Shown: positions 3,368 to 54,478, counted from the stretch's first letter. The stretch: 64,000 bases of DNA from an uncultured Alphaproteobacteria bacterium (GCA_902826035.1 CADEDG010000001.1:38305-102304); one strand, 5' to 3'. Translations and numbers: made by a program. Notes: generated from the sequence alone by a model not told the origin.

Positions 3368-3391
3368 GGGGAAAGGCCGGCTGGTGCGTAT
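3368..3391 (+). promoter_or_regulatory. Putative ECF promoter GGG-N15-GCGTAT upstream of the 3418 ORF
   Basis: GGGGAAAGGCCGGCTGGTGCGTAT. Confidence 0.65.
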
Positions 3392-3417
3392 CAGTAGTGA
3401 AGGGTGGACGAACCCTG

Positions 3418-3729
3418 ATGCGGACACTAGCGCTCTTTGTGTTGAGCCTCGCTTTGATCATGGCGCTTACGCCGCAGTCTGCGCGCGCCTGTGTCCCGCA
3501 TCAGGCCCCTGCCTGCGTTTCGATCGATTGTACAATGAACAACCAATGTGAGGAGGGCCAAAAGGCGTGCGCCCTCTGCTGTGCAACAGCTTGCGCTGTA
3601 GCAGCAGCGCTCGCGGAGAACGCAGCCGCTTTGCCCGCGCCGCCGCACCCGCATTTTGCCCGCTCGCCCTCGCAGCGCGTTCGCGTCGGCTATCGCTCGC
3701 ACGATCCTCCCGTGCCTCGTCTCGGTTGA
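3418..3729 (+). CDS. Small exported Cys-rich protein (DUF2946-like putative metal-binding protein)
   Basis: Signal peptide, CALCCATAC cluster and C-terminal PPVPR, an architecture typical of small ORFs beside metal-efflux genes. Confidence 0.6.
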   Translation: MRTLALFVLSLALIMALTPQSARACVPHQAPACVSIDCTMNNQCEEGQKACALCCATACAVAAALAENAAALPAPPHPHFARSPSQRVRVGYRSHDPPVPRLG

Positions 3730-3809
3730 ACGCTTCTCGCGCTGGCGCACGCCCGGAGGAAACCCCGGACCGCGCTCACTTCAATCTCAAGACAAGTACG
3801 AGGATCATC

Positions 3810-4100
3810 ATGCGTGTTCTTATCCTTGCGGCCGCGATGGCGCTGGTCGCTCAACCCGCGTTCGCGCACCATAAACCGAACCATCGCGACTTCGTCTCGC
3901 GCGCAGAGGCGAGCGCAGCCGCGCCCGATGCGTGTGCGGCGCGCCGACACCGCCATCGTCAGGCCGGCAGTCAGCAGGCGTTGGCCCAGCACTGCCGCGA
4001 GCTTCGTGAGGCGCTGCGCGCCGCGCCCGGCGATGAAGGCTTGCGCGCGCGTTGCGATCAGGCCGCGCACGCCTTGAGCGGGCGCCCGTGCGAGGACTGA
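3810..4100 (+). CDS. Small secreted His/Cys-containing hypothetical protein
   Basis: GAGGA RBS, ATG at 3810, signal peptide ending PAFA, mature N-terminus HHKPNH, four Cys. Confidence 0.65.
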   Translation: MRVLILAAAMALVAQPAFAHHKPNHRDFVSRAEASAAAPDACAARRHRHRQAGSQQALAQHCRELREALRAAPGDEGLRARCDQAAHALSGRPCED

Positions 4101-4295
4101 TGGCGTCAGTGGCGAGGCGGCGAGAACGTTAGCGCGTTTCGCGCCGCTTCGGTCCTTCGGTCTCGATGGGTGGCGATCCACGCGGCGCGCACATCCCGCA
4201 TGCGGATTGAAAGTGGCGAGGATTGGAACGCTAACGCCCAGGGCGCCGTTGGAGAGGAATGAGGCGCCCTGTGGCGCGATCGATGGAGTCTCGTC

Positions 4296-4760
4296 ATGGA
4301 AGCAACAGGCAGCCACCATAAGCCCTACGCCCGGCTCGCGATCATGGCGTTGCTTTCCTTCGTCGCCATGTATGCGCTGATGTATGCGATGGTGGATCGC
4401 TTCGCGAACGTCTACCCCAACCTCAATCAAGCCTATATGGCCGCGTTAATGGCAGCGCCGATGGTCGCCATCGAGATCGTATTGATGGCCTCGATGTATC
4501 CGAACCAGCGGACCAACGCCCTCATTCTGGCCGGCAGCGCGCTTGTGCTGGTCGGCGCATTCTGGGCGATCCGTGAACAAGGCGCCATTGGTGACGACGA
4601 GTTTTTACGCTCGATGATCCCCCACCATGCGGGCGCGATCCTGATGTGTGAGGAGGCCTCGATCAGCGACGCCGAGATCCGGGAACTTTGCGGCGCCATC
4701 ATCGAGAGCCAGCGCCAGGAGATCGCGACCATGAAGCAGATGCTTGATCGCCGCGGCTGA
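4296..4760 (+). CDS. DUF305-family Met/His-rich protein with N-terminal membrane segments
   Basis: FLRSMIPHHAGAILMC and IIESQRQEIATMK are DUF305 motifs. Confidence 0.85.
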   Translation: MEATGSHHKPYARLAIMALLSFVAMYALMYAMVDRFANVYPNLNQAYMAALMAAPMVAIEIVLMASMYPNQRTNALILAGSALVLVGAFWAIREQGAIGDDEFLRSMIPHHAGAILMCEEASISDAEIRELCGAIIESQRQEIATMKQMLDRRG

Positions 4761-4774
4761 GCGCCCCTTTGTGT

Positions 4775-6043: not shown

Positions 6044-6067
6044 TTACGCACGACGCCAGCAAATCCC
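6044..6067 (-). promoter_or_regulatory. Putative ECF promoter upstream of the CE15-like gene
   Basis: Minus strand GGGATTTGCTGGCGTCGTGCGTAA. Confidence 0.5.
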
Positions 6068-7738: not shown

Positions 7739-8425
7739 TCAGAACGCCAAGTGCCCAGCGCCGTGGGTGACCTCCGCGCCTAGATAGGCCTGGCCGAGGA
7801 TCACCAGCACTGTGAGTGCAAGCGTGATTTCATAGAGCCGCCCGCCTAGACGCACCGCGGCCTCGTCAACCGGCTTCTTGAGCCACCACACGAACATGAT
7901 GAGGAAGGGGATTGCAGTGCCGATCCAGCGATGCAGCACCAAAGCGGCTTCATCGTCGGCCGCAGGCAGGCCCGCGTTCGCCCAGCCCAAAGGCGCGGCG
8001 GCGAAGGCGCCGAGCGTCGCCACGGCGAGCAGGATCTTGTTGCTCGCCGCATAGATGGGTTTTTGCCGAAACGCCGCCGCCGCTTCGAGGAAGGCGACAG
8101 TCAGCAACAAAGCGATGGGAAAATGGATGACGGCTGGGTGCCACACGCCGAGCCAGCGTATGATCCGGCCCGACAAGGTCGTCGGGCGCGCATCATGATC
8201 CATCATCATCCCGCCCGCGCCTTCGGCGCTCGGCCACGTCATTTCTCCGGGCTGCATAGCGCCCATGTCGTGTTCGGGCGCGGTTTGCGATGAGTCGGTT
8301 TGCGCTGCCTGCGGGGGATGTTCTTCGCCTCTGTGGGCCAAGGAGATCTGAGGGGTGAAGAGCAGCAGCGAAAGCGTCACGGCCAGCATCGCCGCAATGC
8401 GGACCGTCAATTTCTTGTGCGCCAT
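7739..8425 (-). CDS. DUF2231-family membrane protein with N-terminal His/Met segment
   Basis: HPAVIHFPIALL, LHRWIG and GAEVTHG motifs; GAGGGG RBS before ATG 8425. Confidence 0.8.
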   Translation of the reverse strand: MAHKKLTVRIAAMLAVTLSLLLFTPQISLAHRGEEHPPQAAQTDSSQTAPEHDMGAMQPGEMTWPSAEGAGGMMMDHDARPTTLSGRIIRWLGVWHPAVIHFPIALLLTVAFLEAAAAFRQKPIYAASNKILLAVATLGAFAAAPLGWANAGLPAADDEAALVLHRWIGTAIPFLIMFVWWLKKPVDEAAVRLGGRLYEITLALTVLVILGQAYLGAEVTHGAGHLAF

Positions 8426-8491
8426 CTTGTTCCCCTCAAAAGCGCGCCGCACGCGCGAGCGTTAGCCCACGCGTGCGACGTATTGGCCCGC

Positions 8492-8824
8492 CTAAAGTAC
8501 GTGGATTTCCGTCACCATCGGGCGGCCATTGTCGTTCATAAGCTCGAAGTGAACACGCTGCCCAACGCTCACGCCTTGCAGCACCGCAGCTGAGTGAACG
8601 CGGAAGGTCATCGTCATGGCCGGCCAACCGAGGCTTGCGATGGGACCGTGATTGAGCGTGACTGTGCCGGCTTGCGCGTCGATGGCGGTGACGGTGCCTT
8701 CGCCCTCCGCCGTCTGCGGCACGGCCTGATGTTGTTCGCCTTGATGGGCGAGGGCAGGCGCGGTCAGGGCAAAGCTTGACACCATCGCCGCGGCGATTGC
8801 ACTGACCAGAAGTTTGGCTTTCAT
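8492..8824 (-). CDS. cusF: Second CusF-family copper-binding protein
   Basis: Signal peptide; VTLNHGPIASLGWPAMTMTF. Confidence 0.92.
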   Translation of the reverse strand: MKAKLLVSAIAAAMVSSFALTAPALAHQGEQHQAVPQTAEGEGTVTAIDAQAGTVTLNHGPIASLGWPAMTMTFRVHSAAVLQGVSVGQRVHFELMNDNGRPMVTEIHVL

Positions 8825-8868: not shown

Positions 8869-8892
8869 ATACGCGCGCTTATAGCCAATCCC
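8869..8892 (-). promoter_or_regulatory. Putative ECF promoter upstream of cusF-2/DUF2231
   Basis: Minus strand (A)GGGATTGGCTATAAGCGCGCGTAT. Confidence 0.75.
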
Positions 8893-10018: not shown

Positions 10019-11179
10019 TCAGAACCAAGCGCGAATGCCGAGCACCAGGCGCGCATCCTCGGGATCCTCGCCGCGCGCCTTTAGAAAATCGCGCGTGTCG
10101 CCGAAGCTGCTTGACCATTCAACGCCGACATAAGGCGCAAACTCGCGGCGAATTTCATAGCGCAGACGCACGCCGAGTTCAGCGCTCGTTACGCCCGAGC
10201 CAATCGCAAGTTCGGGAACATCTTCGGCCGACAGATTGATTTCGGCGCGCGGCTGCAAGATGAGGCGTTGCGTCAGGCGCAGATCGTATTCCGCTTCGGC
10301 GCGGGCGCTGAATTCGCCTTCGTTGGAGAGGAAGGCCGCCACGTCGACTTCGAACCAATAGGGCGCGAGGCCCTGCACGCCGACGACAAGATCGGTGCGA
10401 TCGGCATCCGGCGTGTAACGCTGGCGAACCCCGGCCTGGAAATCGAAATAGGGCGTGAACGCGCGGCTGTAGAGCGCTTCTATCTCTGCGGTCTCGAGTT
10501 CGCCGTTGAACGCGCCTTCGCCCTCGCTCTTCCACCAGAAGCGATGAATATCGCCGCCATACCAGCCCTGTGCGTCCCAGACATAGGCGTCCGCGCCCTC
10601 GCCAAAAGTGGCTTCAAGGCGATCGATGATGACGACGCTGGTGCGGATGTCGCCGTTTTCGGCGAGCAATTGTTCGCGCGCCGCGGCCATCGCTCGAGGA
10701 TCGAAATAAAGATCGGCGGCATGCGCCGGTTCGCTGCTCGCAACCGCCGGCGCTGGCGGTTCGCCCGGGCGACCGGGATTGTCCGCGCTGGTCTCGATCT
10801 CGGGGATCGCTGTCATCGCGGACATGTCGTGTCCGCTATGAGCCTCAGCGGGCGGCGTTTGCGGCCAGGCCATTTCCGGCATCGTGGACATGTCATGTCC
10901 AGCGTGCGGATCGGGCGTGGTTTGCGGCATGGTCATGCCTGCATGCGGGTCTGGCGCGGTCTGGGGCATGGCCATGCCCGGCATGCCCGCATGCGGGTCC
11001 GGCGTGGTCTGCGGCGTGGTCATGCCGGACATATCATGGCCCGCGTGCGGATCGGGCGGTTGCGTCTGTTGCTCCGCTGGCGGGGTTTGTTGATGGGCGG
11101 AGTGATCGCTCGTTTGCGCGAGCGCGGGGCTCGCGACCGCGAGCACTAGCGGCGTAAGGGTGGCTGCAAAGAATCTCAC
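10019..11179 (-). CDS. copB: Copper resistance outer-membrane protein CopB
   Basis: WDAQGWYGGD, GLAPYWFEVD and YEIRREFAPYVG; ATGA overlap with the MCO gene. Confidence 0.95.
   Translation of the reverse strand: MRFFAATLTPLVLAVASPALAQTSDHSAHQQTPPAEQQTQPPDPHAGHDMSGMTTPQTTPDPHAGMPGMAMPQTAPDPHAGMTMPQTTPDPHAGHDMSTMPEMAWPQTPPAEAHSGHDMSAMTAIPEIETSADNPGRPGEPPAPAVASSEPAHAADLYFDPRAMAAAREQLLAENGDIRTSVVIIDRLEATFGEGADAYVWDAQGWYGGDIHRFWWKSEGEGAFNGELETAEIEALYSRAFTPYFDFQAGVRQRYTPDADRTDLVVGVQGLAPYWFEVDVAAFLSNEGEFSARAEAEYDLRLTQRLILQPRAEINLSAEDVPELAIGSGVTSAELGVRLRYEIRREFAPYVGVEWSSSFGDTRDFLKARGEDPEDARLVLGIRAWF
10813..11059 (-). repeat. Tandem intragenic DPHAG(H/M)-Met repeats in the CopB N-terminus
   Basis: Four PDPHAG units plus one EAHSGH unit, separated by Met-rich spacers. 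Confidence 0.9.
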
Positions 11180-12999
11180 GAAAGCTCTCCGTCTAGAGGA
11201 CGGATAGTCACCACGTTGAACATGCCGGCATGCATGTGCAGCAAGAGGTGGCAGTGAAACGCCCAGTCTCCCGGATTGTCGGCAGTCAAGTCGAACGTCA
11301 CCTGTCCGCCGGGCGCGACATTGACCGTGTGCTTCAAGGGTTGATGTCCGTCATGGCCGTTGACCAGTTCGAAGAAATGGCCGTGCAAGTGAATGGGGTG
11401 CGACATCATCGTGTCGTTGACGAGCGTAACCCGCACGCGTTCGTTGCGCGCGAACCGGATCGGCTCGACGAGTTCGCTGAAACGCCGGCCGTCAAAGCCC
11501 CACATGAAGCGTTCCATGTTGCCGGTCAGATGAATTTCCATCGTTCGCGACGGCGCCCGGCGATCGCGGTTGGGCGAGAGCGCGACAAGGTCGGTATAGA
11601 CGAGCACGCGGTGATCGACGTTCTCAAGGCCGAGCGGGCGCTCGCCCATCCGGTTCTGCGGCATTGGCGCGATTGTCTGCACGCCAACGCCCACCGCCAT
11701 ATCCGGCGGCGCGTTCTCTGGATCGCGCATATTCATGGCGCCGTGACCGCCCGCGCCGTCATCCGCGGCGCCCATTTGCATGCCCTCCATCTGCATGCCG
11801 CTCATGTCCATGCCCGAATGATCCATACCGGCCATGCCGCCCGACATGTCGTGGCTCATGGCGCCGGTCCCGCCCATGTCCATGCCCATGTCGCGCATGG
11901 TGAGGTTGGGAACTTCACGCAGCGGCGGAATCTCGCCGCTCATGCCAAGCCGCGGCGCCAAGGTCGCGCGGCCCATGCCGGAGCGGTCGATCGCTTCTGA
12001 GACGATTGTGTAAGCGCGGTCTTCGCTCGGGGTGACGATGACGTCGTAGGTTTCGGCGACCGAAATCTGAAATTCATCGACTTCGACGGGGCGCACATTC
12101 TCGCCGTCGGCTTGCACGACGGTCATCGCAAGGCCCGGAATGCGCACATTGAAGATCGACATCGCTGACGCGTTGATGATCCGCAACCGCACCCGCTCGC
12201 CGGGGCGGAAAATGCCCGTCCAGTTTTCTTCGGGGCCGTGACCATTGATGAGGTAGGTGTAAGTCGAGCCGCTGACGTCGAGCACGTCGCGTGGGTCCAT
12301 GCGCATTTCAGCCCACATCCGGCGGTCGGCGGCGCTCATGCGGTCTTCGCCTGAAAAGAGACCCGCCACCGTGGTGCGCTGATAATTGAAATAGCCGGGG
12401 CTTTGCTTGAGGCGCGCCAAAATTTGGTGCGGATGCATGAAGCTCCAGTCCGATAGCACAAGAACGTGCTCGCGGTCGTATTCGACCGGATCGCGCGAGG
12501 CCGGGTCGATGATGATCGGCCCGTAATGGCCCAACGCTTCCTGGAGCCCTGAATGGCTGTGATACCAAAACGTGCCCGCTTGGATGATCGGGAACTCATA
12601 GACAAAAGTCTCGCCAGGGCGAATGCCGGGAAAGCTGATGCCTGGCACGCCGTCCATCTGAAACGGCAGCAGCACGCCGTGCCAGTGGATCGAGGTGTCT
12701 TCTTCCAGCCCATTGGTGACGGACAGGCGGACGTTTTGACCTTCGCGCAGGCGCAGCAGCGGCGCTGGCAGCGTGCCGTTGATGGTGACGGCGTGACCTG
12801 TTCGCCCGCCGACGCTAAAAGGGGAGTGCCCGACATTGAGTGCGACCTCGGGGCCGGCCAAGGTCGTTACTGCCGGCGCGATCCCGGCGGAACCGGTTTG
12901 CGCCCATGCAGGCATCATGCTGTCAAAGGCAAGCCATCCGGCGCCTGCGCCAGCGGCCTTCAACAAAGTTCGACGATCCAGCGCCTTACGCACAAGCAT
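11176..12999 (-). CDS. copA: CopA/PcoA multicopper oxidase, Tat-exported
   Basis: DRRTLL Tat signal; HWHG, WYHSH, HPIHLHGH and HCHLLLHM copper ligands; Met-rich insert. Confidence 0.97.
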   Translation of the reverse strand: MLVRKALDRRTLLKAAGAGAGWLAFDSMMPAWAQTGSAGIAPAVTTLAGPEVALNVGHSPFSVGGRTGHAVTINGTLPAPLLRLREGQNVRLSVTNGLEEDTSIHWHGVLLPFQMDGVPGISFPGIRPGETFVYEFPIIQAGTFWYHSHSGLQEALGHYGPIIIDPASRDPVEYDREHVLVLSDWSFMHPHQILARLKQSPGYFNYQRTTVAGLFSGEDRMSAADRRMWAEMRMDPRDVLDVSGSTYTYLINGHGPEENWTGIFRPGERVRLRIINASAMSIFNVRIPGLAMTVVQADGENVRPVEVDEFQISVAETYDVIVTPSEDRAYTIVSEAIDRSGMGRATLAPRLGMSGEIPPLREVPNLTMRDMGMDMGGTGAMSHDMSGGMAGMDHSGMDMSGMQMEGMQMGAADDGAGGHGAMNMRDPENAPPDMAVGVGVQTIAPMPQNRMGERPLGLENVDHRVLVYTDLVALSPNRDRRAPSRTMEIHLTGNMERFMWGFDGRRFSELVEPIRFARNERVRVTLVNDTMMSHPIHLHGHFFELVNGHDGHQPLKHTVNVAPGGQVTFDLTADNPGDWAFHCHLLLHMHAGMFNVVTIRPLDGELS

Positions 13000-13034: not shown

Positions 13035-13058
13035 ATACGCGCCCTCCCGCGCGATCCC
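13035..13058 (-). promoter_or_regulatory. Putative ECF promoter upstream of copA(MCO)-copB
   Basis: Minus strand (A)GGGATCGCGCGGGAGGGCGCGTAT. Confidence 0.75.
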
Positions 13059-13092: not shown

Positions 13093-13116
13093 GGGAAATC
13101 AGCAACTGGCGCGTAA
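13093..13116 (+). promoter_or_regulatory. Putative ECF promoter, divergent partner, upstream of 13147
   Basis: GGGAAATCAGCAACTGGCGCGTAA. Confidence 0.7.
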
Positions 13117-13146: not shown

Positions 13147-13629
13147 ATGCGGATGCTAAAGAAATTGGTGATCATCTTTGTCGCAGCCTGGGCCATGGCG
13201 GGCGCGGCGGCGGCCCAGCCCAGCGCCGATGAGTTAGCCGTGGAAGCGGTTCTCTCAGGATACCGCCAGGCCATTGAGGCGCGCGACGGCGAGGCGGCCT
13301 CGCGCTATTTCTGGCCGGAATCGCAGGTCTTTGAGCAAGGCGGCGTGGAGGGCGATTTTGCCACTTATCTTGCCCACCACTTGGGACCAGAATTGCACGA
13401 GATCGCCAGTTTCGATTTTGACGGCCTTGAGACCGACTTCGAAATCGCAGGCGATTTCGCTTATGCCAGCGAAGTCTACACCTACGCGATCACGTTCCCT
13501 GAAGCTGCGGCGCGCGCGCCAATTGCGCGACGCGGCGTTGCTACCAGCATGTTGCAGCGCCGTGGCGGCGAGTGGCGCATCGTTGTCTATCACTCGTCTT
13601 CACGTGCGCCCCGGCCGCCTGCAAATTAG
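13147..13629 (+). CDS. Secreted NTF2/SnoaL-like (DUF4440/YybH-like) protein
   Basis: Signal peptide; YLAHHLGPEL; C-terminal WRIVVYHSSSR. Confidence 0.8.
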   Translation: MRMLKKLVIIFVAAWAMAGAAAAQPSADELAVEAVLSGYRQAIEARDGEAASRYFWPESQVFEQGGVEGDFATYLAHHLGPELHEIASFDFDGLETDFEIAGDFAYASEVYTYAITFPEAAARAPIARRGVATSMLQRRGGEWRIVVYHSSSRAPRPPAN

Positions 13630-15398: not shown

Positions 15399-16139
15399 CT
15401 ACGCCTCGTCGAATTTCACCGCGCCCGTGATGGTGAGCGGGCTTGCGCCGAACATGCGCGCGCAGGTGCGCGAGAAGTGAGCCGAATCGGCAAAGCCGCC
15501 ATGATGTGCAGCTTCGGTGAGTGACAATCCCTGAGCGATGCCGGTGAAGGCGCGCCGGAGCTTCGACCAAAGCAGGAATGACCGGATCGGCACGCCGATC
15601 TCGTCGCGAAAAAGATGGGCAGCGCGCGATTGCGAGAGATTAAGGGTGCGAGCGAGTGCGCGCGCGTCAAGGGGAGCGTCGCTCTCGTGAAAGGCGCCAA
15701 GCGCTGCACCAATGCGGGCGTCGCGGGCCGGCGCTATCTCTGCGGCGCCCAACAAACCGGCTAGTCGCTCGGCTGGATCGGCGCCTTCATCAGCGATCGA
15801 GGTTTCGACGATGGCGGCCAGTTCTGCTGCTTGGGCCGGGGAAAGCACATTGATCCGATCGCCGATTGCACGAGCGATCCGCTGCCCGGATGTGCTGTCG
15901 GGATCGACGTAGAGAAAACTGCTGGGATAGGCCGCCGTTGCGCGATGAGAGACATTGGCGGGCGCTACAAATCCTTGGCCGTGATGTTCGCCGCTTGCGT
16001 CCACGAGCAGTGCGTGGGGGCCAGCAAATGCTTGAATTGCGTGGTGGCTATGAAAGCCATTGTCGCCCGCGGCGCCAAGGAATGCCGCCCACCACGGCCC
16101 GATGCGGGCTGCGCCCCGCCATTTGGCGACGCTATTCAT
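15399..16139 (-). CDS. AraC-family transcriptional regulator
   Basis: LSQSRAAHLFRDEIG and AAHHGGFADSAHFSRT double-HTH motifs. Confidence 0.92.
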   Translation of the reverse strand: MNSVAKWRGAARIGPWWAAFLGAAGDNGFHSHHAIQAFAGPHALLVDASGEHHGQGFVAPANVSHRATAAYPSSFLYVDPDSTSGQRIARAIGDRINVLSPAQAAELAAIVETSIADEGADPAERLAGLLGAAEIAPARDARIGAALGAFHESDAPLDARALARTLNLSQSRAAHLFRDEIGVPIRSFLLWSKLRRAFTGIAQGLSLTEAAHHGGFADSAHFSRTCARMFGASPLTITGAVKFDEA

Positions 16140-16692
16140 CGCGCAGCGCCCGTGCGAGAGCCAGTTTGGCGCGGTAAACGCGGGTTTCGACGGCTTTGGG
16201 TGTTAAGCTCAGCACGCGCGCGGCGTCGTGATGGCTCATCCCGCTGATCGCTGTCAGCAGCAAAGGTTCTTTCAGACCCGCGGGCAAGGCTGCAATCGCG
16301 GAATCGAGCCGGGTCAGATTGCGCTGCAAGGTCTCGTCGTCAGCGTCTGTCGCGGCGGCGATGTCTGGGGATGTCTGGATGCTCTCGGCGCCAAAGAAGA
16401 AGCGACGAACTGCGCGGCGACGCGCCCAGTCACGGCATTTATTGAGCGCGATCCGCTTGATCCATGCCGGAAATGGACGGTCCTTATCGTAGCGAGCAAG
16501 CGCAAGCCAGGCCGCAGCAAACGCCTCCTGGGTGAGGTCATAGGCTTCGTCGGCGTCGGCCACGTAGGAGCGCACGAACCGGTAAACCTTTTCCTTGTGA
16601 CGGCGCACCAGCAGAGAAAATGCCGCCTCCCGACCCCCGAGCGCCGCTGCCACGAGCGATGCGTCATCGCTTTCGGGCGAGGGGACGCTCAT
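16132..16692 (-). CDS. ECF sigma factor, CnrH-like (module 1)
   Basis: Sigma2 (EAYDLTQEAF, AWIKRIALNKCRDW) and sigma4 (VETRVYRAK); translationally coupled to the sensor gene. Confidence 0.9.
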   Translation of the reverse strand: MSVPSPESDDASLVAAALGGREAAFSLLVRRHKEKVYRFVRSYVADADEAYDLTQEAFAAAWLALARYDKDRPFPAWIKRIALNKCRDWARRRAVRRFFFGAESIQTSPDIAAATDADDETLQRNLTRLDSAIAALPAGLKEPLLLTAISGMSHHDAARVLSLTPKAVETRVYRAKLALARALRDE

Positions 16693-17126
16693 TGGGGCTC
16701 GGCGGTTAACGCCTCGACGACGGTATCGTCGAAGATCGCCTTCTGCTCATCGTTCAGGACCTCGCGCATCGCAAACATGTGAGCGATGGTTTCGGTCTGT
16801 AGCCGCCCCATCGCGTCATGAAATCGCTCAACCGCAGCCGCGACCCTTGGACCGTTCTCATGCTCTTCGCGGATGGCCGCGGCCAGCTCGGCGTTGGCGG
16901 AGCGCATTTCAAGTTCAAGCGCGTGCTTGCGGGCGGCGAACGCGCCTTCCAGCGTCTCGATTCTAGCGAGTTGATCGCCGCTTAGATCAAGGCGGTGATG
17001 CACGACATCGTGCATTGAGGGTGCAGGCCCCGGCGCCAGCGCCTTCATGCCTAACCAGACCCCGCCGAAACCTGCCGCCAAGGCCACCAACGCCGTCAGC
17101 AAGATGGCCCGACCCGAAAGTCTCAA
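16689..17126 (-). CDS. Periplasmic heavy-metal sensor, CnrX/NccX-like (module 1)
   Basis: One TM helix, then HDVVHH, FHDAMGRLQ and HMFAMREVL: the His/His/Glu/His/Met ligand pattern. Confidence 0.88.
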   Translation of the reverse strand: MRLSGRAILLTALVALAAGFGGVWLGMKALAPGPAPSMHDVVHHRLDLSGDQLARIETLEGAFAARKHALELEMRSANAELAAAIREEHENGPRVAAAVERFHDAMGRLQTETIAHMFAMREVLNDEQKAIFDDTVVEALTAEPQ

Positions 17127-20400: not shown

Positions 20401-20445
20401 GCTTTTCAAGTCAAACCAGGAGCGCGAGCGCTCGCGTTATCAGCT

Positions 20446-25988: not shown

Positions 25989-25991
25989 GAC

Positions 25992-40557: not shown

Positions 40558-41055
40558 TCAATCAGGCAAAGGCAGCGCGGCCGCATCATAGATGAACGTC
40601 AAGCGCGCTGCTGGGCGATCTGGGCGGCGCGCCTCGATGGTCAGATGATAGCGGTCGCGCGCAAGTGTCGTGAAACCGCCATAGGCGAGGGCGTCTTCAA
40701 TGCGCATCGGCTCAAGCCGCAGCTGGCGCGCGCCGCGATGGCGTTCGCCGCGCAAGCTCGCTTCGACTGCGGCGTCTTCGATGCGCGCGCCGGTATCTGC
40801 ATCGAACAGCGCGACCATGACATGTGCGTTGCCGCCGCCTACGCCCGCATGCATGCGCCGCTCCGCATGGCTTGGCGCGTGAGTTGCGATCAACGCGCTG
40901 GGCGCAACTCCCAAATAGGCCGTGACGCCATCGGCGGTTTGCACAAACATGGTTTCGTGGGGCCGCGGAGGCGTGCAGGCCGTTAACGCCGCGACCAAAA
41001 GCGCTACGATGAAGCCGCGGCGCAAGCTGACGCTCGAATCCGGGACGAGCGTCAT
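40558..41055 (-). CDS. Hypothetical His-containing lipoprotein
   Basis: Lipobox LTAC; HAPSHAERRMH, HVMVALFD; ATGA overlap with the upstream gene. Confidence 0.7.
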   Translation of the reverse strand: MTLVPDSSVSLRRGFIVALLVAALTACTPPRPHETMFVQTADGVTAYLGVAPSALIATHAPSHAERRMHAGVGGGNAHVMVALFDADTGARIEDAAVEASLRGERHRGARQLRLEPMRIEDALAYGGFTTLARDRYHLTIEARRPDRPAARLTFIYDAAALPLPD

Positions 41056-41621
41056 GATGCTTGGCGCGGCGGCGCCGCTGCAAAGAGCGAAAGGCCAAAG
41101 CTGATCAGGTTGATCGCCAGGAACACGCCAGGGGCGATCATTCCCGAGTGCGGCAGCGCCCAGATGAGCAAGCCGCCCAGAACGAGGCCGAGCACGCCGC
41201 CCAAAGCCATGCGCCCCCACGGACACGATTTGTGCGTACGGTGCGCCAGCGCATGACCAAGCGCGATAAGCCCCTGGGTCATGAGCGCCGCACCCAAGAT
41301 GACGGTGAGCGCGAGCGCGCCAGGCCAAGGATGCAGAAGCAGACAAATGCCGGCGACAATAGCGACCACCGACCAAAGCAAGCGCCAGGCAAAACCCTTG
41401 GCGCGCCAATCCACAATCAGCAGCGCCAGACCTGAGACGCCGGCAGCCAACATCGCCGCGCCAAACCAAATACTGGCCGCGAAGGTTGCGAGTATCGGCG
41501 CAAACGCAGCCGCGACGCCGAACGTGATCATCAAGGCCCCAACAATCATGAACACGATCCGCCGCGCTCCGGTCGATCGAGCGGCGGGGCGAGGGGCGGA
41601 TGGCGTGGCGGCTTCGGTCAT
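41052..41621 (-). CDS. HdeD/DUF308-family membrane protein
   Basis: Six TM segments, with PILATFAASIWFG and PWPGALALTVILG repeats. Confidence 0.75.
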   Translation of the reverse strand: MTEAATPSAPRPAARSTGARRIVFMIVGALMITFGVAAAFAPILATFAASIWFGAAMLAAGVSGLALLIVDWRAKGFAWRLLWSVVAIVAGICLLLHPWPGALALTVILGAALMTQGLIALGHALAHRTHKSCPWGRMALGGVLGLVLGGLLIWALPHSGMIAPGVFLAINLISFGLSLFAAAPPRQAS

Positions 41622-41656
41622 GATGGGGCTCACATAAAGCGGCGTACCAAAAGGTG

Positions 41657-41680
41657 ATACGCACGCTCGCCCGCTCTCCC
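41657..41680 (-). promoter_or_regulatory. Putative ECF promoter of the HdeD-lipoprotein-ATP-grasp operon
   Basis: Minus strand GGGAGAGCGGGCGAGCGTGCGTAT. Confidence 0.72.
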
Positions 41681-48369: not shown

Positions 48370-48439
48370 CGAGCGCGCCGCGCCGGGGATGACAGGGCGG
48401 GGAAGCGGCAGGTCGATCGCCCGGTTTAGGCGCGCTCGC
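48370..48439 (-). ncRNA. Candidate structured RNA, copy B (5' leader of the DUF2933 operon)
   Basis: Starts 6 nt after GCGTAT; stem CGAGCGCGCC/GGCGCGCTCG; internal GATC and CCCCGCCC; ends 30 nt before ATG 48339. Confidence 0.5.
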
Positions 48440-48445: not shown

Positions 48446-48469
48446 ATACGCGGCCCGAGGCGGGTTCCC
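48446..48469 (-). promoter_or_regulatory. Putative ECF promoter of the DUF2933-ICMT-HlyD-rbbA-yhhJ operon
   Basis: Minus strand (A)GGGAACCCGCCTCGGGCCGCGTAT. Confidence 0.78.
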
Positions 48470-48508: not shown

Positions 48509-48532
48509 GGGCGAGCGCCGTCAGGCGCGTAT
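48509..48532 (+). promoter_or_regulatory. Putative ECF promoter of the DUF5676-GAPDH-ATPase operon
   Basis: (A)GGGCGAGCGCCGTCAGGCGCGTAT. Confidence 0.78.
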
Positions 48533-48590: not shown

Positions 48591-48881
48591 ATGGCTCAGC
48601 AACCAAGCGCTGAACGAAGCGCAGGGATCGGCGTTCTACCGTTGGGCATTGCGTTGGCGGTGACGCTGCTCGCAGCCTACGGGGCATGCTGGCTGGTTGC
48701 GGCCTCGCCCTATGCTGCGCCGTTCGCGCACGCTTGGCTGCAATTGTTCTCGGCCGAGCCCGAAGGCTCAATCGCGCAACTGATTGAGGGCGCGATCTTC
48801 AGCGCCGTCGCCGCCTGGTTCGCCGCCCTCATCTTCGCGCCTGTCTATAACTTGGTCGCCCGCGCCGATCGCATTATTTGA
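48591..48881 (+). CDS. DUF5676-like membrane protein (second paralog)
   Basis: HAWLQLFS..AWFAALIFAPVYN, similar to 38713..39030. Confidence 0.7.
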   Translation: MAQQPSAERSAGIGVLPLGIALAVTLLAAYGACWLVAASPYAAPFAHAWLQLFSAEPEGSIAQLIEGAIFSAVAAWFAALIFAPVYNLVARADRII

Positions 48882-48909
48882 CGCGCTCGTTTCGCGAAGT
48901 GAGGAAGTC

Positions 48910-49902
48910 ATGACGATACGGGTAGGCGTCAACGGCTATGGCGTCATCGGCAAGCGCGTCGCCGACGCGGTCAGGCTGCAAACCGACATGGAGCTTGTCG
49001 GCGTCTGCGACATCGCCGACGATTGGCGCATTGGCGTCGTACGCGATCAGGGCGTCCCGATCTATTCTCCCTCCGGCGCAGCAAGAGCAGGATCGCTTGA
49101 GGATATGGCGGCCGGCGCCGATCTGGTGGTCGACTGCACCCCCAAGGGCGTCGCCGCCAAGAACGCCGTGCTCTATCGCAAGCTGGGCGTCAAATTCATC
49201 GTCCAGGGCGGTGAAAAGCATGAAGTCACAGGCCATTCCTTTGTCGCCGATGCGACCTATGCGAGCGCTCTCAACCGGCCCTCGACGCGTGTTGTGTCGT
49301 GCAACACGACTTCGATTGTGCGCGTCTTCGGCGCGCTGCGGCGCGCTGGTTTGCTGCGGCGCGCACGCGGGACTTTGCTCCGCCGTGCGCTCGATCCATG
49401 GGAGAGCCATCTTGGCGGGATCATGAACACGCTTGTCCCGGAGGCGCACGTTCCAAGCCATCAAGGTCCGGACGCCCAAACCGTCGACCCCGCGCTCGAT
49501 CTCGTCACCATGGCGGTCAAGGTGCCTGAAACGCTTGGACACATGCATTTCTGGTCCGCCGATCTTACCGGCGATCCCACGCGCGACGAGGTGCGCGCCG
49601 TGCTCTCCGCCTCGCCGCGCATCGCCTTCGTGCGCGAGAGCGAGGGCCTTGGCGCGCTTAACGCGGTCAAGGAGCGCATGCTCGATCTTGGCCGGCCCCG
49701 TGGCGACCTTTATGAAGTCGCGATCCTGGAGGAGACGCTGACGGTGGCGAATGGCGAACTCTTCTGCGCCTATATGGTCGACAATCAGGCGATTGTAATT
49801 CCAGAAACCATCGACGCTGTTCGCGCTCTTATGGGCAGGGAGCAGGAGGCGGCGGTCTCAATGCGCATGACCAATCAGGCGCTCGCCATCGCCGCCCGAT
49901 GA
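48910..49902 (+). CDS. Type II (archaeal-type) phosphorylating GAPDH
   Basis: NGYGVIGKRVADAV, FIVQGGEK, VVSCNTT, SHQGPDA and VDNQAIVIPETIDA. Confidence 0.9.
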   Translation: MTIRVGVNGYGVIGKRVADAVRLQTDMELVGVCDIADDWRIGVVRDQGVPIYSPSGAARAGSLEDMAAGADLVVDCTPKGVAAKNAVLYRKLGVKFIVQGGEKHEVTGHSFVADATYASALNRPSTRVVSCNTTSIVRVFGALRRAGLLRRARGTLLRRALDPWESHLGGIMNTLVPEAHVPSHQGPDAQTVDPALDLVTMAVKVPETLGHMHFWSADLTGDPTRDEVRAVLSASPRIAFVRESEGLGALNAVKERMLDLGRPRGDLYEVAILEETLTVANGELFCAYMVDNQAIVIPETIDAVRALMGREQEAAVSMRMTNQALAIAAR

Positions 49903-49927: not shown

Positions 49928-52210
49928 ATGCAGACCGAAACACTGACCTTCGACGATCTCGTCACGCCGCTCGATCCGCTCGTGCTGGAGCGCCATCTAA
50001 AGCACACCCCCGGCGTCGCCGACGCAACGGCTAATTTTGCATCGGGATCCGTTACGGTCACGTTCGATCCGGCCGAAACTGATGTAGACCGGGTGCGTGC
50101 GGCTGTGAGCGCTTGCGGGTTTCACTGCCGCGGCGTGTCGGCTCCCCAGCATGTGGGTTCGCGTGAGCACGAGGCTCACACGCACAAGACCGCACCGGCG
50201 CCCTCCGAGCGCGGTCATCAGGGCGCGAGCGATGTCGGACACGAGATGGGTCATGGCGGGGGCATGGGCATGGCCGCCATGGCGAAGGATATGCGCAATC
50301 GCTTTCTGGTCGCGCTCGGCTTTTCCATTCCGATCTTCCTGTTGGCGCCGATGGGCATGGAAGCCATGCGCATCGATCCGCCATTCGGGTGGGATCTTGA
50401 AGTTACGCTTTTCTTTCTGGCGAGCGGGGCGATCCTCTATCCAGGTTGGCCGTTCTTTGTCGCCGCCGTGCGCGCGCTGCGTCGCGGCGTCTTCAACATG
50501 GCCGTGCTGGTGCTGTTAAGCGTTGGCGCCGGCTATTTCTTCTCAATTGGCGCCACTTTTGTCTGGGGCGGCGCGCAATTCTACGAAGCATCTTCGGTGC
50601 TCTTGGTGTTCATCCTGCTGGGGCACTGGCTGGAGATGCGCGCCAGAGCCGGCGCGTCAGAAGCCATACGGCGGCTCATGGATCTGGCGCCGCCGATGGC
50701 TATCGTCGTGCGCGACGGCCAGGAGGTCTTGGTCTCAACGGCCGAGGTGAAGATCGAGGATATCGTCGTGGTGAAACCGGGCGGCAAAGCCCCAGTCGAT
50801 GGCGTCATCATCGAAGGGCGCTCCGACATCGATGAATCCATGCTCACCGGCGAATCGTTGCCAGTGAGCAAGACAATTGGGGACGCCGTCATTGGCGGCA
50901 CCATCAACAAAAGCGGCATGATCCGTTATCGCGCCACCAAAATCGGCGCCGACACAGCTTTGGCGCAGATCGTCAAGCTGGTGCAGGAAGCACAGAACTC
51001 CAAGGCGCCAGCCCAATTGCTCGCCGATCGCGCCTCGCAGTGGCTGGTGATCGCCGCCATCGTCATAGCCGTCGCCACTTTCGTCGCCTGGCTGGCGCTT
51101 GGTCAGCCGCTCCTTTTCGCGCTTACGTTGGCGATCACAGTCTTGGTCATCGCCTGTCCGGACGCGCTTGGCCTTGCGACGCCGATGGCGATCATGGTCG
51201 GCACCGGCATTGGCGCGCGCCATGGCATCCTTATCAAAGACGCGGTTGCATTGGAGGATTCCGCCAAGCTCGACGTGGTTGTGTTTGACAAAACCGGCAC
51301 GCTGACCCTGGGCGCTCCGAAAGTGGTTGAGGTCGTTGCAAGCGAAGGGCTGAGCGAAAACGACCTTGTCGCACTGGCGGCCGCAGTCGAGAGCGGTTCC
51401 GAGCACCATATCGCCGTCGCCCTCAAGGAACGCGCCAAGGGTCTGACGTTGCCAGAAGTCTCTGACTTCGCCTCGTTCGAAGGCAAAGGCGTCAGCGGCG
51501 GTATCGGCGGCGCCAAAATTCTTTCAGGCAACCGCATGCTCATGGCCGACAACCAGGTGGCGTTCGGCGCGCTCGCCGACGAGGCCGATCGTCTCTTGGG
51601 ATCCGGCCGCACCGTTGCGCACATAGCTCGCGATGGCCAATTGATCGGCCTCATCGCGATCGCTGACGCCGCGCGCCCGACGGCGGCCGCGACTGTCGAG
51701 CGCCTCAAGCGCCAAGGCGTCGAGGTCGCGATGATGACCGGCGACAATCTCGCCACGGCGCGGCGCATCGCGGGCGAACTCGGCGTCGATATCGTGCTTG
51801 CGGAAGTCCTGCCGGGGCAGAAGGCGGACAAGATCAAAGAGCTGCAGGCGCAGGGCAAGAAGGTTGGCATGGTTGGCGATGGCGTCAATGATGCGCCGGC
51901 GCTGACCCAGGCCGATGTGGGGTTCGCCATTGGCGCAGGCACAGACGTCGCCATGGAGAGCGCCGACGTCGTGCTCATGCGCAGCGATCCTTACGATGTC
52001 GTGCGCGCGATCGATCTGTCGCGCGCCACGTTGCGCAAGATGCATCAAAATCTTTGGTGGGCGGCGGGCTACAATGTGCTCGCGTTCCCGTTGGCGGCGG
52101 GCGTGCTCTACCCGCTGCTGCTCAGCCCCGAGATCGCGGCGCTGTCGATGTCGGGCAGCTCAGTGATCGTGGCGGCCAACGCGCTCTTGCTGCGCTGGGA
52201 GAAGCTCTGA
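49928..52210 (+). CDS. Copper-type P1B ATPase with CPD motif (P1B-3-like)
   Basis: HMA-like N-terminus and His/Met linker; LLGHWLEM, ACPDALGLATP, DKTGTLT, YN and MSGSS. Confidence 0.93.
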   Translation: MQTETLTFDDLVTPLDPLVLERHLKHTPGVADATANFASGSVTVTFDPAETDVDRVRAAVSACGFHCRGVSAPQHVGSREHEAHTHKTAPAPSERGHQGASDVGHEMGHGGGMGMAAMAKDMRNRFLVALGFSIPIFLLAPMGMEAMRIDPPFGWDLEVTLFFLASGAILYPGWPFFVAAVRALRRGVFNMAVLVLLSVGAGYFFSIGATFVWGGAQFYEASSVLLVFILLGHWLEMRARAGASEAIRRLMDLAPPMAIVVRDGQEVLVSTAEVKIEDIVVVKPGGKAPVDGVIIEGRSDIDESMLTGESLPVSKTIGDAVIGGTINKSGMIRYRATKIGADTALAQIVKLVQEAQNSKAPAQLLADRASQWLVIAAIVIAVATFVAWLALGQPLLFALTLAITVLVIACPDALGLATPMAIMVGTGIGARHGILIKDAVALEDSAKLDVVVFDKTGTLTLGAPKVVEVVASEGLSENDLVALAAAVESGSEHHIAVALKERAKGLTLPEVSDFASFEGKGVSGGIGGAKILSGNRMLMADNQVAFGALADEADRLLGSGRTVAHIARDGQLIGLIAIADAARPTAAATVERLKRQGVEVAMMTGDNLATARRIAGELGVDIVLAEVLPGQKADKIKELQAQGKKVGMVGDGVNDAPALTQADVGFAIGAGTDVAMESADVVLMRSDPYDVVRAIDLSRATLRKMHQNLWWAAGYNVLAFPLAAGVLYPLLLSPEIAALSMSGSSVIVAANALLLRWEKL

Positions 52211-52591: not shown

Positions 52592-52876
52592 TTATTGCGG
52601 TTGCGCGGGGGCCTCGGTTGGCGCGGCCTGCGTATCCGTTTGCTGTTCACGGCAACCCGGATGGGCCGCGGTCGGCATACGACTGTTGTCATGTGGCCGA
52701 TTCATATCGTGGCTTGCCGTATCATAGGGGCAGTCCGTCGGTTCGGCAGGCATGGCGGAGTCGCGCATCGTCTCGCGCGGCCCATGATGATGCCTATCCG
52801 CTGGCGCCGTGCATGCGCCAAGCGCCAACAGCCCGCCAGCGGACGCGGCGCAAACAATGCCCTTCAACACGTTCAT
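52592..52876 (-). CDS. Small His/Met/Cys lipoprotein
   Basis: GAGGAG RBS; lipobox LGAC; HHH, CPYD and HPGC; ends PAQPQ. Confidence 0.72.
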   Translation of the reverse strand: MNVLKGIVCAASAGGLLALGACTAPADRHHHGPRETMRDSAMPAEPTDCPYDTASHDMNRPHDNSRMPTAAHPGCREQQTDTQAAPTEAPAQPQ

Positions 52877-52922: not shown

Positions 52923-52946
52923 ATACGCACCGGCGCGCTCTTGCCC
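52923..52946 (-). promoter_or_regulatory. Putative ECF promoter of the 52876 lipoprotein
   Basis: Minus strand (A)GGGCAAGAGCGCGCCGGTGCGTAT. Confidence 0.75.
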
Positions 52947-52977
52947 TGAACCCGCACTTTCGCCCGGCGCTCATCCA

Positions 52978-53001
52978 GGGCGAATGCCGCGTGGCGCGTA
53001 A
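52978..53001 (+). promoter_or_regulatory. Putative ECF promoter of cfa
   Basis: (A)GGGCGAATGCCGCGTGGCGCGTAA. Confidence 0.72.
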
Positions 53002-53064
53002 TCAATGTGAGGACGCACCTGAGAGCGCGCCCGGGAGCGCAAGTGATGGGAGAGAGCGATCAAT

Positions 53065-54330
53065 ATGCTTGAGAGTTCCACCGATAAGGCACGCAAGGGC
53101 GTGGTGCTGGGCCAAAAGCGTCACTTTCTCTCGTCGGAAGCTCTGCTCTGTGCAGCGCTCGATCAGCTCATTGCGCGCGGCAATCTGGTCGTCACCTTTC
53201 CCAGCGGCGAGCAGCGCCACTTCGGCGAGCGAGCTGGCGCCCCTGTCGTTGTCGCAATCGAAGAGGCAAACGCTCTAGGCCGGCTGCTGACCAATGGCGA
53301 ATTGGCGTTGGGCGAACTTTACACCGATGGCCTCATCACAATCGCCCGCGACGATATCGATGGCCTGCTGGCGCTCATCCTGCAAAACCTTCGAAGCCAT
53401 GGCTTCAAAGCGAGAGCCGCGCCCGCGGGCATGCGCCTCTTTGAGGCGCCGCGCCGCGAACTCAACGACAGAAAACGCGCCGAACGCAACGTAGCGCACC
53501 ACTACGACATCTCCAATGAGCTTTACCGGCTCTTTCTCGATGAAGACCTGCAATATTCGTGCGCCTATTTCGAAACGGGCGGTGAGACCCTCGAACAGGC
53601 ACAAGAAGCCAAGAAGGAGCTCATCGCAGCAAAGCTCTGCCTGCGCCCAGGCCTTTCGGTCTTGGACATTGGCTGCGGCTGGGGCGGGCTTGCGCTCCAC
53701 TTGGCGCGCACGCGCGGCGTTCATGTCCGCGGCATCACACTCTCGCAAGCCCAGTTGCCAGTTGCGCGCGTGCGCGCCGAGGCGCAAGGCCTCGCGCCGC
53801 AAACAAGTTTCGCGCTCGAAGATTATCGCGAAACGAACGGCGCGTTTGACCGGATCGTCTCGGTTGGCATGTTCGAACATGTCGGACGTGGCCACTATGA
53901 TGAGTTTTTTCAAAAGCTCGCTTCGCTGCTTGTTGAGGATGGCGTGGCGCTATTGCACACGATCGGCCGCGCGGATGGACCAGGCGCCACTAGTCCATGG
54001 ATCGACCGCTACATCTTCCCGGGCGGCTACATTCCCGCGCTTTCAGAGATCATGCCGGCGGTTGAGCGCGCGGGATTATATGTGACCGACATTGACGTGT
54101 GGCGTCTTCACTACGCCTTCACGTTGCGTGCATGGCGAGAACGCTTCGAAGCGCGGCTGGACGACGTGCGCGCCATGTTCGATGAGCGCTTCTGCCGCCT
54201 GTGGCGCTTCTACCTGGCCGCAAGCGAAGCGGCGTTTCGGTACGGCGGCCATGAAGTGTTTCAGATTCAGCTCGCGCGCCGTCAGGACGCTGTTCCGCGG
54301 ACACGGCGCTATCTGGAACGCCCCGCTTAA
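53065..54330 (+). CDS. cfa: Cyclopropane-fatty-acyl-phospholipid synthase family methyltransferase
   Basis: HHYDISNELY, QYSCAYF, LDIGCGWGG, VSVGMFEHVG and YIFPGG. Confidence 0.93.
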   Translation: MLESSTDKARKGVVLGQKRHFLSSEALLCAALDQLIARGNLVVTFPSGEQRHFGERAGAPVVVAIEEANALGRLLTNGELALGELYTDGLITIARDDIDGLLALILQNLRSHGFKARAAPAGMRLFEAPRRELNDRKRAERNVAHHYDISNELYRLFLDEDLQYSCAYFETGGETLEQAQEAKKELIAAKLCLRPGLSVLDIGCGWGGLALHLARTRGVHVRGITLSQAQLPVARVRAEAQGLAPQTSFALEDYRETNGAFDRIVSVGMFEHVGRGHYDEFFQKLASLLVEDGVALLHTIGRADGPGATSPWIDRYIFPGGYIPALSEIMPAVERAGLYVTDIDVWRLHYAFTLRAWRERFEARLDDVRAMFDERFCRLWRFYLAASEAAFRYGGHEVFQIQLARRQDAVPRTRRYLERPA

Positions 54331-54376
54331 GCAGGTTTGAAGAGCCTCCGTCGCCCGATCGAGGATCAGGAATGAG

Positions 54377-54448
54377 TGAGCGCGCACGGCCCAGGTGCGC
54401 CGTACGGGGGGAGGGGCGCGAGGGTTGATCCCAGGCTGGCGCGCTCAT
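54377..54448 (-). ncRNA. Candidate structured RNA, copy C (orphan, convergent on cfa)
   Basis: Starts 6 nt after GCGTAT; stem TGAGCGCGC/GCGCGCTCA; GGGATC; CCCCTCCC; 72 nt like copy A. Confidence 0.5.
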
Positions 54449-54454
54449 TCTATA

Positions 54455-54478
54455 ATACGCACGAGCCCAGCGGTCCCC
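54455..54478 (-). promoter_or_regulatory. Putative ECF promoter with no credible downstream gene
   Basis: Minus strand (A)GGGGACCGCTGGGCTCGTGCGTAT. Confidence 0.7.

Follow-up and report, generated by a model that had tools for sequence, protein, structure and literature searches.

CnrH is a founding extracytoplasmic function (ECF) sigma factor, and its known regulon consists of two promoters on one plasmid. It belongs to the CnrYXH-cnrCBAT system of Cupriavidus metallidurans CH34 (plasmid pMOL28), which has a counterpart in NccYXH and whose main target is a resistance-nodulation-division (RND) pump. CnrH is classified in group ECF291, formerly part of ECF20 (PMC7826278). The metal ligands of the sensor CnrX are H42, H46, E63 and H119, and the architecture of CnrY has been described in the same work (PMC6851896). 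Genomic island GI 6 of Streptomyces coelicolor provides a precedent for a self-contained ECF regulon on an island, and CorE and CorE2 of Myxococcus xanthus are ECF sigma factors that govern copper genes (multicopper oxidase, P-type ATPase). Here, a stretch of 64,000 nucleotides, called the window, was analyzed from an uncultured Alphaproteobacteria bacterium (GCA_902826035.1, a 3.14-Mb assembly of 208 contigs); it covers positions 38305-102304 of contig C1 (CADEDG010000001.1). The window holds a metal-resistance island with 20 copies of the motif (T/C)(G/C)(A/C)GGG-N15-(Y)GCGTAT, which is very probably the -35/-10 promoter of CnrH-like (ECF291) sigma factors encoded on the island itself.

GGG-N15-GCGTA is matched 19 times in the window, each time at a position given in the initial annotation, against 1.40 matches expected and a maximum of 6 in 100 dinucleotide-preserving shuffles. 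A twentieth site, at 39099-39123 on the minus strand, has a spacer of 16 and ACGTAT as its -10 box. It fits the extended consensus, and three related islands have CCAGGG-N16-GCGTAT at the orthologous position, for which reason it was counted as real. Intergenic DNA, which by a curated gene list amounts to 7,831 bases or 12% of the window and where ~0.17 matches would be expected by chance, contains all 20 sites; none of them lies in the 56 kb of coding DNA. A plausible start codon, usually with a Shine-Dalgarno sequence, is found 23-100 nt downstream of 18 sites, and no credible open reading frame (ORF) follows the sites 23127(-) and 54478(-). The consensus, which also draws on positions outside the search pattern, is (T/C)(G/C)(A/C)-GGG-(A/C)(T/A)...(G)(Y)-GCGTAT-(A). 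Two classes of -35 box can be told apart by position -2, counted like all promoter positions here relative to the first G of GGG. Class A (xGAGGG or xGCGGG) has G at this position and class B (xCAGGG) has C. The sites are as follows, with gene functions of the window taken from Pfam.

3368-3391, plus strand: class A site (cgcGGG) before a secreted hypothetical protein (ATG ~3418) and probably DUF305 (4296-4760); kept in orthologues.
6044-6067, minus strand: class A site (cgcGGG) before an esterase-like gene (4775 to ~5989).
8869-8892, minus strand: class A site (TGAGGG) before CusF (8492-8824) and DUF2231 (7739-8452).
13035-13058, minus strand: class A site (TGAGGG) before the multicopper oxidase CopA (11176-12999), CopB and a PepSY_TM protein.
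13093-13116, plus strand: class A site (TGCGGG), divergent to 13058(-), before a SnoaL/DUF4440 protein (13147-13629).
17431-17454, minus strand: class A site (TTGAGGG), the putative autoregulatory promoter of module 1, before cnrY1-cnrX1-cnrH1, AraC, a fatty-acid hydroxylase and a methyltransferase.
17474-17497, plus strand: class A site (TTGAGGG), back to back with 17454(-), before a methyltransferase (17544-18254) and a pyruvyl transferase.
23104-23127, minus strand: orphan class A site (TGCGGG) with no credible ORF, antisense to the 3' end of the P-ATPase gene 20392-22866.
26296-26320, minus strand: class B site (CCAGGG), its register ambiguous by one base, the putative promoter of cnrY2-cnrX2.
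28316-28339, plus strand: class B site (TCAGGG in every orthologue) before phosphoketolase, beta-CASP, glycosyl-transferase-3/phosphorylase-like and Prs genes (28393-34540).
35596-35619, minus strand: class B-like site (CCGGGG) before a lipoprotein (35268-35567) and ExoD (34580-35233).
36305-36328, minus strand: class B-like site (CCGGGG) before a small DUF2933-like membrane protein (35963-36226).
37534-37557, minus strand: class B site (CCAGGG) before Bax1-I (36475-37263), possibly behind a short ORF.
39099-39123, minus strand: class B site (CCAGGG) with spacer 16, before a protein with two transmembrane helices (38713-39030) and a 2-hydroxyacid dehydrogenase (37584-38591).
41657-41680, minus strand: class A site (TGCGGG; CGAGGG in orthologues) before a DUF308/HdeD-like protein (41052-41633), a 165-aa ORF and a 442-aa protein without family match.
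48446-48469, minus strand: class B site (TCAGGG) before DUF2933, an ICMT/PEMT-like methyltransferase, HlyD and an ABC-2 exporter (48339 down to 42485).
48509-48532, plus strand: class B site (CCAGGG), divergent to 48469(-), before a small ORF, a GAPDH-like gene (48784-49902) and the P-type ATPase 49928-52210.
52923-52946, minus strand: class B site (TCAGGG) before a lipoprotein (52592-52876).
52978-53001, plus strand: class B site (CCAGGG), divergent to 52946(-), before a cyclopropane-fatty-acid (CFA) synthase (53065-54330).
54455-54478, minus strand: orphan class A site (TGAGGG) with no credible ORF, antisense to the 3' end of the CFA synthase gene.

Behind these sites lie ~20 transcription units with ~45 genes, including copAB, two cusF genes, one P-type ATPase and many small envelope proteins. 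Two proteins of the DUF308 operon behind 41680(-) have no family match in Pfam. Four divergent pairs stand back to back (13058/13093, 17454/17474, 48469/48509 and 52946/52978).

The motif is restricted to the island. Across the whole assembly, spacer 15 gives 105 matches and the other spacers from 10 to 21 give 66-97 (mean ~81), an excess at spacer 15 of ~25 matches, 19 of them inside the window. Counted as candidate sites, ~25 exist genome-wide and 20 of these are packed into 51 kb. Beyond the window, convincing intergenic matches are three on the 5.2-kb contig C155 and one each on C92 and C23; on contig C1 outside window positions 3368-54478, no site was found except a weak one ~470 nt upstream of cusC. 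A position weight matrix trained on the window sites, and circular for those sites, served only to show the scarcity of high-scoring intergenic matches elsewhere. Since the genome outside the island is at background, the motif is island-specific. It is not an artefact of composition, nor does it serve the organism as a general promoter; a housekeeping promoter was ruled out on the same ground. The initial annotation had proposed about 20 promoter-like copies, all between genes, 18 of them pointing at a nearby start codon, with fewer than one chance match in the intergenic DNA, and each of these statements holds. Its suggestion to compare match rates in coding DNA and genome-wide also came out in favor of the motif, since 66 of the 86 matches outside the window are within genes, which is the background level.

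The two boxes agree with what is known of CnrH promoters. Tibazarwa et al. reportedly gave CRAGGGGRAG as the -35 consensus in 2000. In the window and in other genomes, the orientation with GGG upstream and GCGTAT downstream points at genes. The ECF Hub consensus for ECF291 is listed as '-35 XATACGC, -10 XXCCCTCA' (PMC13492112, Table 4); reverse-complemented, these two boxes are exactly GCGTAT and TGAGGG. According to PMC13492112, primer extension and run-off transcription had defined CCGTATA as the -10 element of cnrYp. This verified element and the gene orientation in the window and in the 72 loci described below point to an inverted orientation of the ECF291 entry in PMC13492112.

That the motif is no sigma promoter at all, and is instead a dispersed repeat or the binding site of a conventional transcription factor of the AraC or MerR family encoded on the island, is very improbable. 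Candidate regulators are at hand, with an AraC gene at 15399-16139 in the cnrYXH1 operon and a MerR gene at 19902-20342, and the four back-to-back pairs could suit a dimeric regulator. Such a site would have to account for two boxes that are asymmetric and held at a rigid distance of 15 bases by a spacer of unconserved sequence, for their orientation towards genes 23-100 nt ahead of start codons, and for their identity with the predicted and verified CnrH promoter elements. Spacers and flanks cannot be aligned from site to site, so the motif is not a dispersed repeat. A further candidate, leaderless mRNAs starting at an ATG or GTG that lies 4-9 nt past the -10 box at several sites, was ruled out because the conserved GAGCGCGCC stands at a fixed distance from the -10 box in any reading frame and the Shine-Dalgarno-led starts sit further downstream.

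The candidate readers of the promoter are encoded on the island itself. The window contains three ECF sigma genes, two of them with putative sensor and anti-sigma partners.

16132-17404, minus strand: module 1, in the canonical cnrYXH order, with cnrY1 at 17123-17404 (93 aa, one transmembrane helix), cnrX1 at 16689-17126 and cnrH1 at 16132-16692.
25542-26237, minus strand: putative sensor and anti-sigma genes of module 2, with cnrY2 at 25992-26237 and cnrX2 at 25542-25988.
26447-27103, plus strand: cnrH2, a CnrH-like sigma gene divergent to cnrY2X2, followed by ackA and without a motif of its own.
24613-25245, plus strand: a third, divergent ECF sigma gene with CorE-like features (CAC linker, Cys-rich C-terminus).

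CnrH1 and CnrH2 each consist of the Pfam domains Sigma70_r2 and Sigma70_r4_2 and are 47% identical to each other. The best match of both in the PDB is CnrH (4CXF_A), at 3e-33 for CnrH1 and 8e-30 for CnrH2, with the next matches at 5e-18 and 2.5e-20. Both CnrX1 and CnrX2 carry the Pfam domain Metal_resist, and CnrX2 is 46% identical to CnrX1. CnrX1 matches the CnrX/NccX structures at ~1e-14, and H42, H46, E63, H119 and M123 align to identical residues. CnrY1 (93 aa) and CnrY2 (81 aa) have one hydrophobic helix each and short motifs in common; as predicted proteins, their position, size and single helix fit the CnrY architecture, which is that of a class II anti-sigma factor of ~95 aa with ~45 cytoplasmic residues at the N-terminus and one transmembrane helix, its gene standing two places ahead of the sigma gene. 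In module 2, the sigma gene is divergent to cnrY2X2 and not downstream as in the CnrY layout. A GGAAC element is present at 26322-26326, in the cnrY2/cnrH2 intergenic region 26238-26446.

The third sigma factor is distant from CnrH, and its best PDB matches are SigH and SigE at ~1e-5. Between sigma-2 and sigma-4 it carries a CAC motif, and its C-terminus has CAVCVIHGFGECEC; a CAC-type linker with a Cys-rich tail is a CorE-like feature (PMC10141476). No CnrH-type promoter precedes its gene, which stands downstream of metK and turns up together with cnrH2 in related islands; the protein probably does not read the motif. Of the earlier proposals on these genes, the likeness to a CnrH-type promoter (G-rich -35, CGTA -10) and the presence of the motif ahead of both cnrY-like operons, at 17454(-) and 26320(-), were upheld. 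Three sigma genes (16132, 24667 and 26468) had been singled out; CnrH is the best PDB match for 16132-16692(-) and 26447-27103(+), and not for 24613-25245(+).

To follow the motif beyond this organism, relatives of CnrH1 were collected from 80 loci in Hyphomonadaceae, Terricaulis, Caulobacter, Sphingomonadales and other groups. This range puts the organism itself within or close to Hyphomonadaceae. A distant set of 72 of these loci, 1.21 Mb in all, has sigma factors that are 47-69% identical. In this set GGG-N15-GCGTA gives 238 matches versus 13-27 at control spacers (~10-fold), and AGGG-N15-GCGTA gives 204 versus 2-8. An excess at spacer 14 (76 matches) arises because GGGG runs read the same sites one base over. 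The logo of the distant sites is T-G-A-GGG-a-T ... Y-GCGTA-T, with purines enriched 6-9 nt past the -10 box. Within 10 kb on either side of the sigma gene, a locus has a median of 3 sites and a maximum of 7. CopA is the commonest downstream gene (61), followed by CnrX/CnrY (36), CusF (18), methyltransferase (12) and DUF2231 (10). Only 4 of the 80 loci encode the CorE-like third sigma factor, so it is the CnrH-like sigma factor, and not the third one, whose presence the motif follows. Going by these genes and promoters, what looks like a copper-wired CnrYXH-like module is widespread in Alphaproteobacteria, and full-text literature searches returned no paper on it. Gene content here and in the relatives suggests that the inducing metal is probably copper rather than nickel or cobalt.

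The same island was found in at least four other metagenome-assembled genomes (MAGs; G001:C11, G003:C12, G004:C14 and C18, with a shorter version in G002:C2). Alignable intergenic regions of these islands always retain the site, even at ~70% overall identity. In the 40 site-orthologue pairs that are less than 90% identical, identity reaches 93% in the two boxes, compared with 73% in the spacer and 72% in the flanks; the orthologous islands are closely related to each other and the 40 pairs are not independent. A plasmid collection held no close relative of the island, and only the P-ATPase gene by itself found a match there, at ~72% identity. No CnrH2 relative above 45% identity was present in 401 alphaproteobacterial genomes, and a metagenome scan for distant CnrH2 relatives recovered the same island type only.

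The close relationship of the orthologous islands is one of several points that weigh against the assignment of the motif to CnrH-like sigma factors. A phmmer search of the PDB, in which the CnrY chain of 4CXF is present, gave no significant match for CnrY1 or CnrY2, and no similarity of the two to CnrY was detected. No motif is present upstream of cnrH2. The division of promoters between the two sigma factors has its own difficulty, which is that a CCAGGG site is occasionally present in single-sigma loci.

The 20 promoters are divided equally between the classes, ten with G and ten with C at -2, and each class includes one cnrY promoter. The class of each promoter is the same in every orthologue; the cnrY1 promoter reads TGAGGG in 8 of 8 copies and, counting the window and its orthologues, the cnrY2 promoter reads CCAGGG in 13 of 13. 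A second position goes with the first, since C at +3 occurs in none of the ten class A sites and in six of the ten class B sites (Fisher p = 0.011). At the distant loci only 16 of 238 sites have C at -2, compared with 10 of 20 here (P = 2e-7). The sigma factors differ in a corresponding place. In the 72 distant CnrH1-like sigma factors, the sigma-4.2 recognition helix reads K-A-V-E-x-R-V-Y, with A167 invariant, V168 in 85% (Ile in the rest) and Y173 in 99%. All 18 members of the CnrH2 clade have K-S-L-E-Y-R-V-H, that is, A167S, V168L and Y173H in the helix that reads the -35 box. These patterns suggest that CnrH1 prefers class A and CnrH2 prefers class B, an assignment that we consider slightly more likely than not, and that the promoters probably form two sister regulons and not one. 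The initial annotation had envisaged one wide regulon, in which the CnrH-like sigma factors co-regulate efflux, carbon-metabolism, lipid and unknown genes. Its width is supported, with 20 promoters and ~45 genes against cnrYXH plus cnrCBAT in the canonical case. Its unity is less probable, given the -35 classes and the changes in the CnrH2 helix.

A single regulon is nevertheless quite possible, if on the doubtful side. Both CnrH-like sigma factors might read all 20 promoters, or just one of them might be active, and G or C at -2 would then be variation tolerated after the joining of two modules. The GGG and GCGTAT cores are common to both classes, and CCAGGG occasionally stands beside TGAGGG in single-sigma loci. 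Because of these occasional sites, the two classes may owe their existence to tolerated variation or to a common origin of the promoters and not to insulation between two sigma factors, and a common origin would equally give a class inherited per promoter in closely related islands. A single regulon fits less well with the frequency of C at -2 (7% in single-sigma loci, 50% here), with the difference in class between the two cnrY promoters in all orthologues, with the co-variation of position +3 with class, and with the change of three near-invariant residues in the CnrH2 clade.

A different assignment, in which class B is read by the CorE-like third sigma factor (24613-25245) and not by CnrH2, is improbable. 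The gene adjoins cnrH2, islands of this type contain it along with cnrH2 and class B sites, and the CorE-like Cys motifs of its product suggest direct metal sensing. The distance of this protein from CnrH is hard to reconcile with the full CnrH-type GGG and GCGTAT cores of class B, and it is the CnrH2 partners, cnrY2X2, that sit behind a class B site.

For the preferred reading, with CnrH1 on class A and CnrH2 on class B, a mechanism can be proposed by analogy with CnrYXH. In the resting state, each sigma factor would be held at the membrane by a small single-pass anti-sigma factor, CnrY1 or CnrY2, in complex with the periplasmic metal sensor CnrX1 or CnrX2. Binding of metal to the sensor would free the sigma factor, which would then bring RNA polymerase to the ~20 promoters across 51 kb and so to the transcription units behind them. 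CnrH1 would read xG(A/C)GGG (10 sites, with the cnrY1 promoter) and CnrH2 would read xCAGGG (10 sites, with the cnrY2 promoter). If CnrH2 reads the cnrY2 promoter, with no motif before cnrH2, it would induce its inhibitors cnrY2X2 and not itself, which amounts to negative feedback without positive autoregulation. The two orphan promoters would make non-coding or antisense RNAs. Since the mobile island carries its own sigma factors together with their targets, the regulon would be self-contained and transferable.

The most detailed form of this proposal is put forward tentatively, as close to evenly balanced and not quite reaching it. Two sensor/anti-sigma/sigma channels would be insulated from each other by the -2 base (and C at +3), matched to A167S, V168L and Y173H of CnrH2. 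Channel 1 would serve periplasmic copper detoxification. Channel 2 would serve metabolic and envelope remodelling (phosphoketolase-prs, the GAPDH-like gene with the P-type ATPase, CFA synthase, the ABC exporter and Bax1-I), with CnrH2 driving its inhibitors only, in pure negative feedback. Two promoters would yield structured antisense RNAs against the 3' ends of the P-type ATPase and CFA synthase genes.

The predicted transcripts from 23127(-), 54478(-) and 48469(-) begin with a hairpin of 67-69 nt, which has the arms GAGCGCGC and GCGCGCUC and a C-rich apex.

~23027-23095, minus strand: 5' hairpin of 69 nt behind the orphan site 23127(-).
~54378-54446, minus strand: 5' hairpin of 69 nt behind the orphan site 54478(-).
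~48371-48437, minus strand: 5' hairpin of 67 nt behind the site 48469(-).

The hairpin is conserved in the orthologues, and covariation gives no information because the arms are invariant. No match to Rfam was obtained at the gathering threshold or at E <= 1, and no intrinsic terminator was found after the orphan promoters 23127(-) and 54478(-). A loose genome scan for the hairpin arms returned mostly chance pairs. Three related islands keep the antisense arrangement of 54478(-) relative to the CFA synthase gene.

Several metal genes of the island are not preceded by the motif. RND pumps and the P-ATPase 56694-59261 bracket the promoter-rich segment. Apart from the weak site already mentioned, no motif was found before the CusCBA pump at the left edge (ending at window position 2991; C1 35391-38128), and none that is convincing before the czc-like RND operon at the right edge (59720-63994 and beyond; C1 102310-103647). 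The motif was not found before the MerR gene (19902-20342) and P-ATPase 20392-22866, before P-ATPase 56694-59261, before metK and the third sigma gene, before cnrH2-ackA, or before DUF6629, EamA and DUF2958. The weak site upstream of cusC is contained in a 30-base stretch, GGGCGGGGGCGCGCCGCTCCCCGTGCGTAC, which occurs twice on C1, at 34764 and 34919, on either side of a run of N; the duplication is probably a scaffolding artefact.

Upstream of the window, contig C1 carries between 10523 and 22705 a MobA/VirD2-like relaxase, ArdC, an SSB-like protein, ParB, an S26/TraF-like peptidase and a LuxR/LuxI pair, and DUF2958 is also among the mobile-type genes that flank the island on this contig. With the relaxase, ArdC, ParB and S26/TraF-like peptidase on its contig, the island belongs to a mobile element; this is apparently an integrative or conjugative element that carries the metal island as cargo. 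Contig C155 holds a paralogous copper module and encodes DUF2231, CusF, a methyltransferase, DUF305, a PepSY_TM protein and a P-ATPase that is 82% identical to 20392-22866. Its three sites are of class A and stand before CusF-DUF2231, the methyltransferase and the PepSY_TM protein, and there is no sigma gene on this contig. The module could either be served in trans as a second locus or reflect strain heterogeneity in the MAG. Elsewhere in the assembly, C32 6513-6590 and C120 4211-4294 share a long palindrome, GAGCGCGCACCTCCyGGTGCGC ... GCGCACCrGGAGGyGCGCGCTC, which is unrelated to the promoters and may be a repetitive extragenic palindrome (REP)-like repeat.

If the promoter assignment is correct, the regulon would supply candidate metal-stress genes of unknown function, namely DUF2231, DUF308, DUF2933, small lipoproteins and the 442-aa protein without family match. 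If the classes are truly sigma-specific, the island would offer a natural pair of related ECF sigma/promoter sets that may not cross-react. Three residues and one or two bases would then explain the change of specificity, which could be of use for studies of -35 recognition and for synthetic circuits.

Among the described systems, the CorE and CorE2 sigma factors of M. xanthus resemble this island in their control of copper genes, and the third sigma factor here shares with them a CxC linker and a Cys-rich tail. CorE and CorE2 respond to copper or to Cd/Zn and have no anti-sigma factor, whereas the motif here tracks CnrH-like sigma factors that are probably under anti-sigma control. GI 6 of S. 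coelicolor is likewise a transferable island with an ECF sigma factor, anti-sigma factors and a contiguous regulon (~26 genes there) sharing -35/-10 boxes. It belongs to another phylum and its sigma factor to another ECF group, it has no link to metals, and its regulon was established by sigma overexpression, while the present one is predicted from sequence only.

The copAB-adjacent CnrYXH modules of Caulobacterales and Sphingomonadales, as seen in the 72 loci, are closer. Their sigma factors belong to the same family (47-69% identity), their promoter likewise reads TGAGGGAT-N12-YGCGTAT, and they share the core targets (cnrY/cnrX, copA, cusF, DUF2231 and methyltransferase). Each of these loci has one sigma factor and a median of 3 sites (maximum 7), compared with 20 sites over 51 kb here, and they lack the second sigma clade with its altered sigma-4.2 helix, the second promoter class and the metabolic operons of this island.

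The closest characterized relative is CnrYXH-cnrCBAT. The sigma factors here are most similar to CnrH, the CnrX-like sensor retains the metal ligands, and a small single-pass protein occupies the position of CnrY. Module 1 has the order Y-X-H behind its own promoter, the promoter combines a G-rich -35 with a CGTAT(A) -10, and both systems are on a mobile element. There are, however, 20 promoters here instead of 2 and two paralogous modules; in module 2, cnrH is divergent to cnrYX and not autoregulated; and CnrY1 and CnrY2 show no detected sequence similarity to CnrY. The RND pumps of the island are not behind the motif, unlike the pump of the canonical cnr system, and the predicted targets are copAB, cusF, one P-type ATPase, an ABC exporter, and genes of carbon and lipid metabolism. 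New features are the scale (20 promoters, 51 kb, ~45 genes), a gene content that extends to central carbon, nucleotides and lipids, a second clade of sigma factors that probably has a promoter class of its own, and orphan promoters of predicted RNAs. Compared with its plasmid-borne prototype, the island would represent a CnrH-type switch that has been scaled up on a transferable element and whose targets have shifted from a nickel/cobalt pump to copper detoxification and to the metabolism of carbon, nucleotides and lipids.

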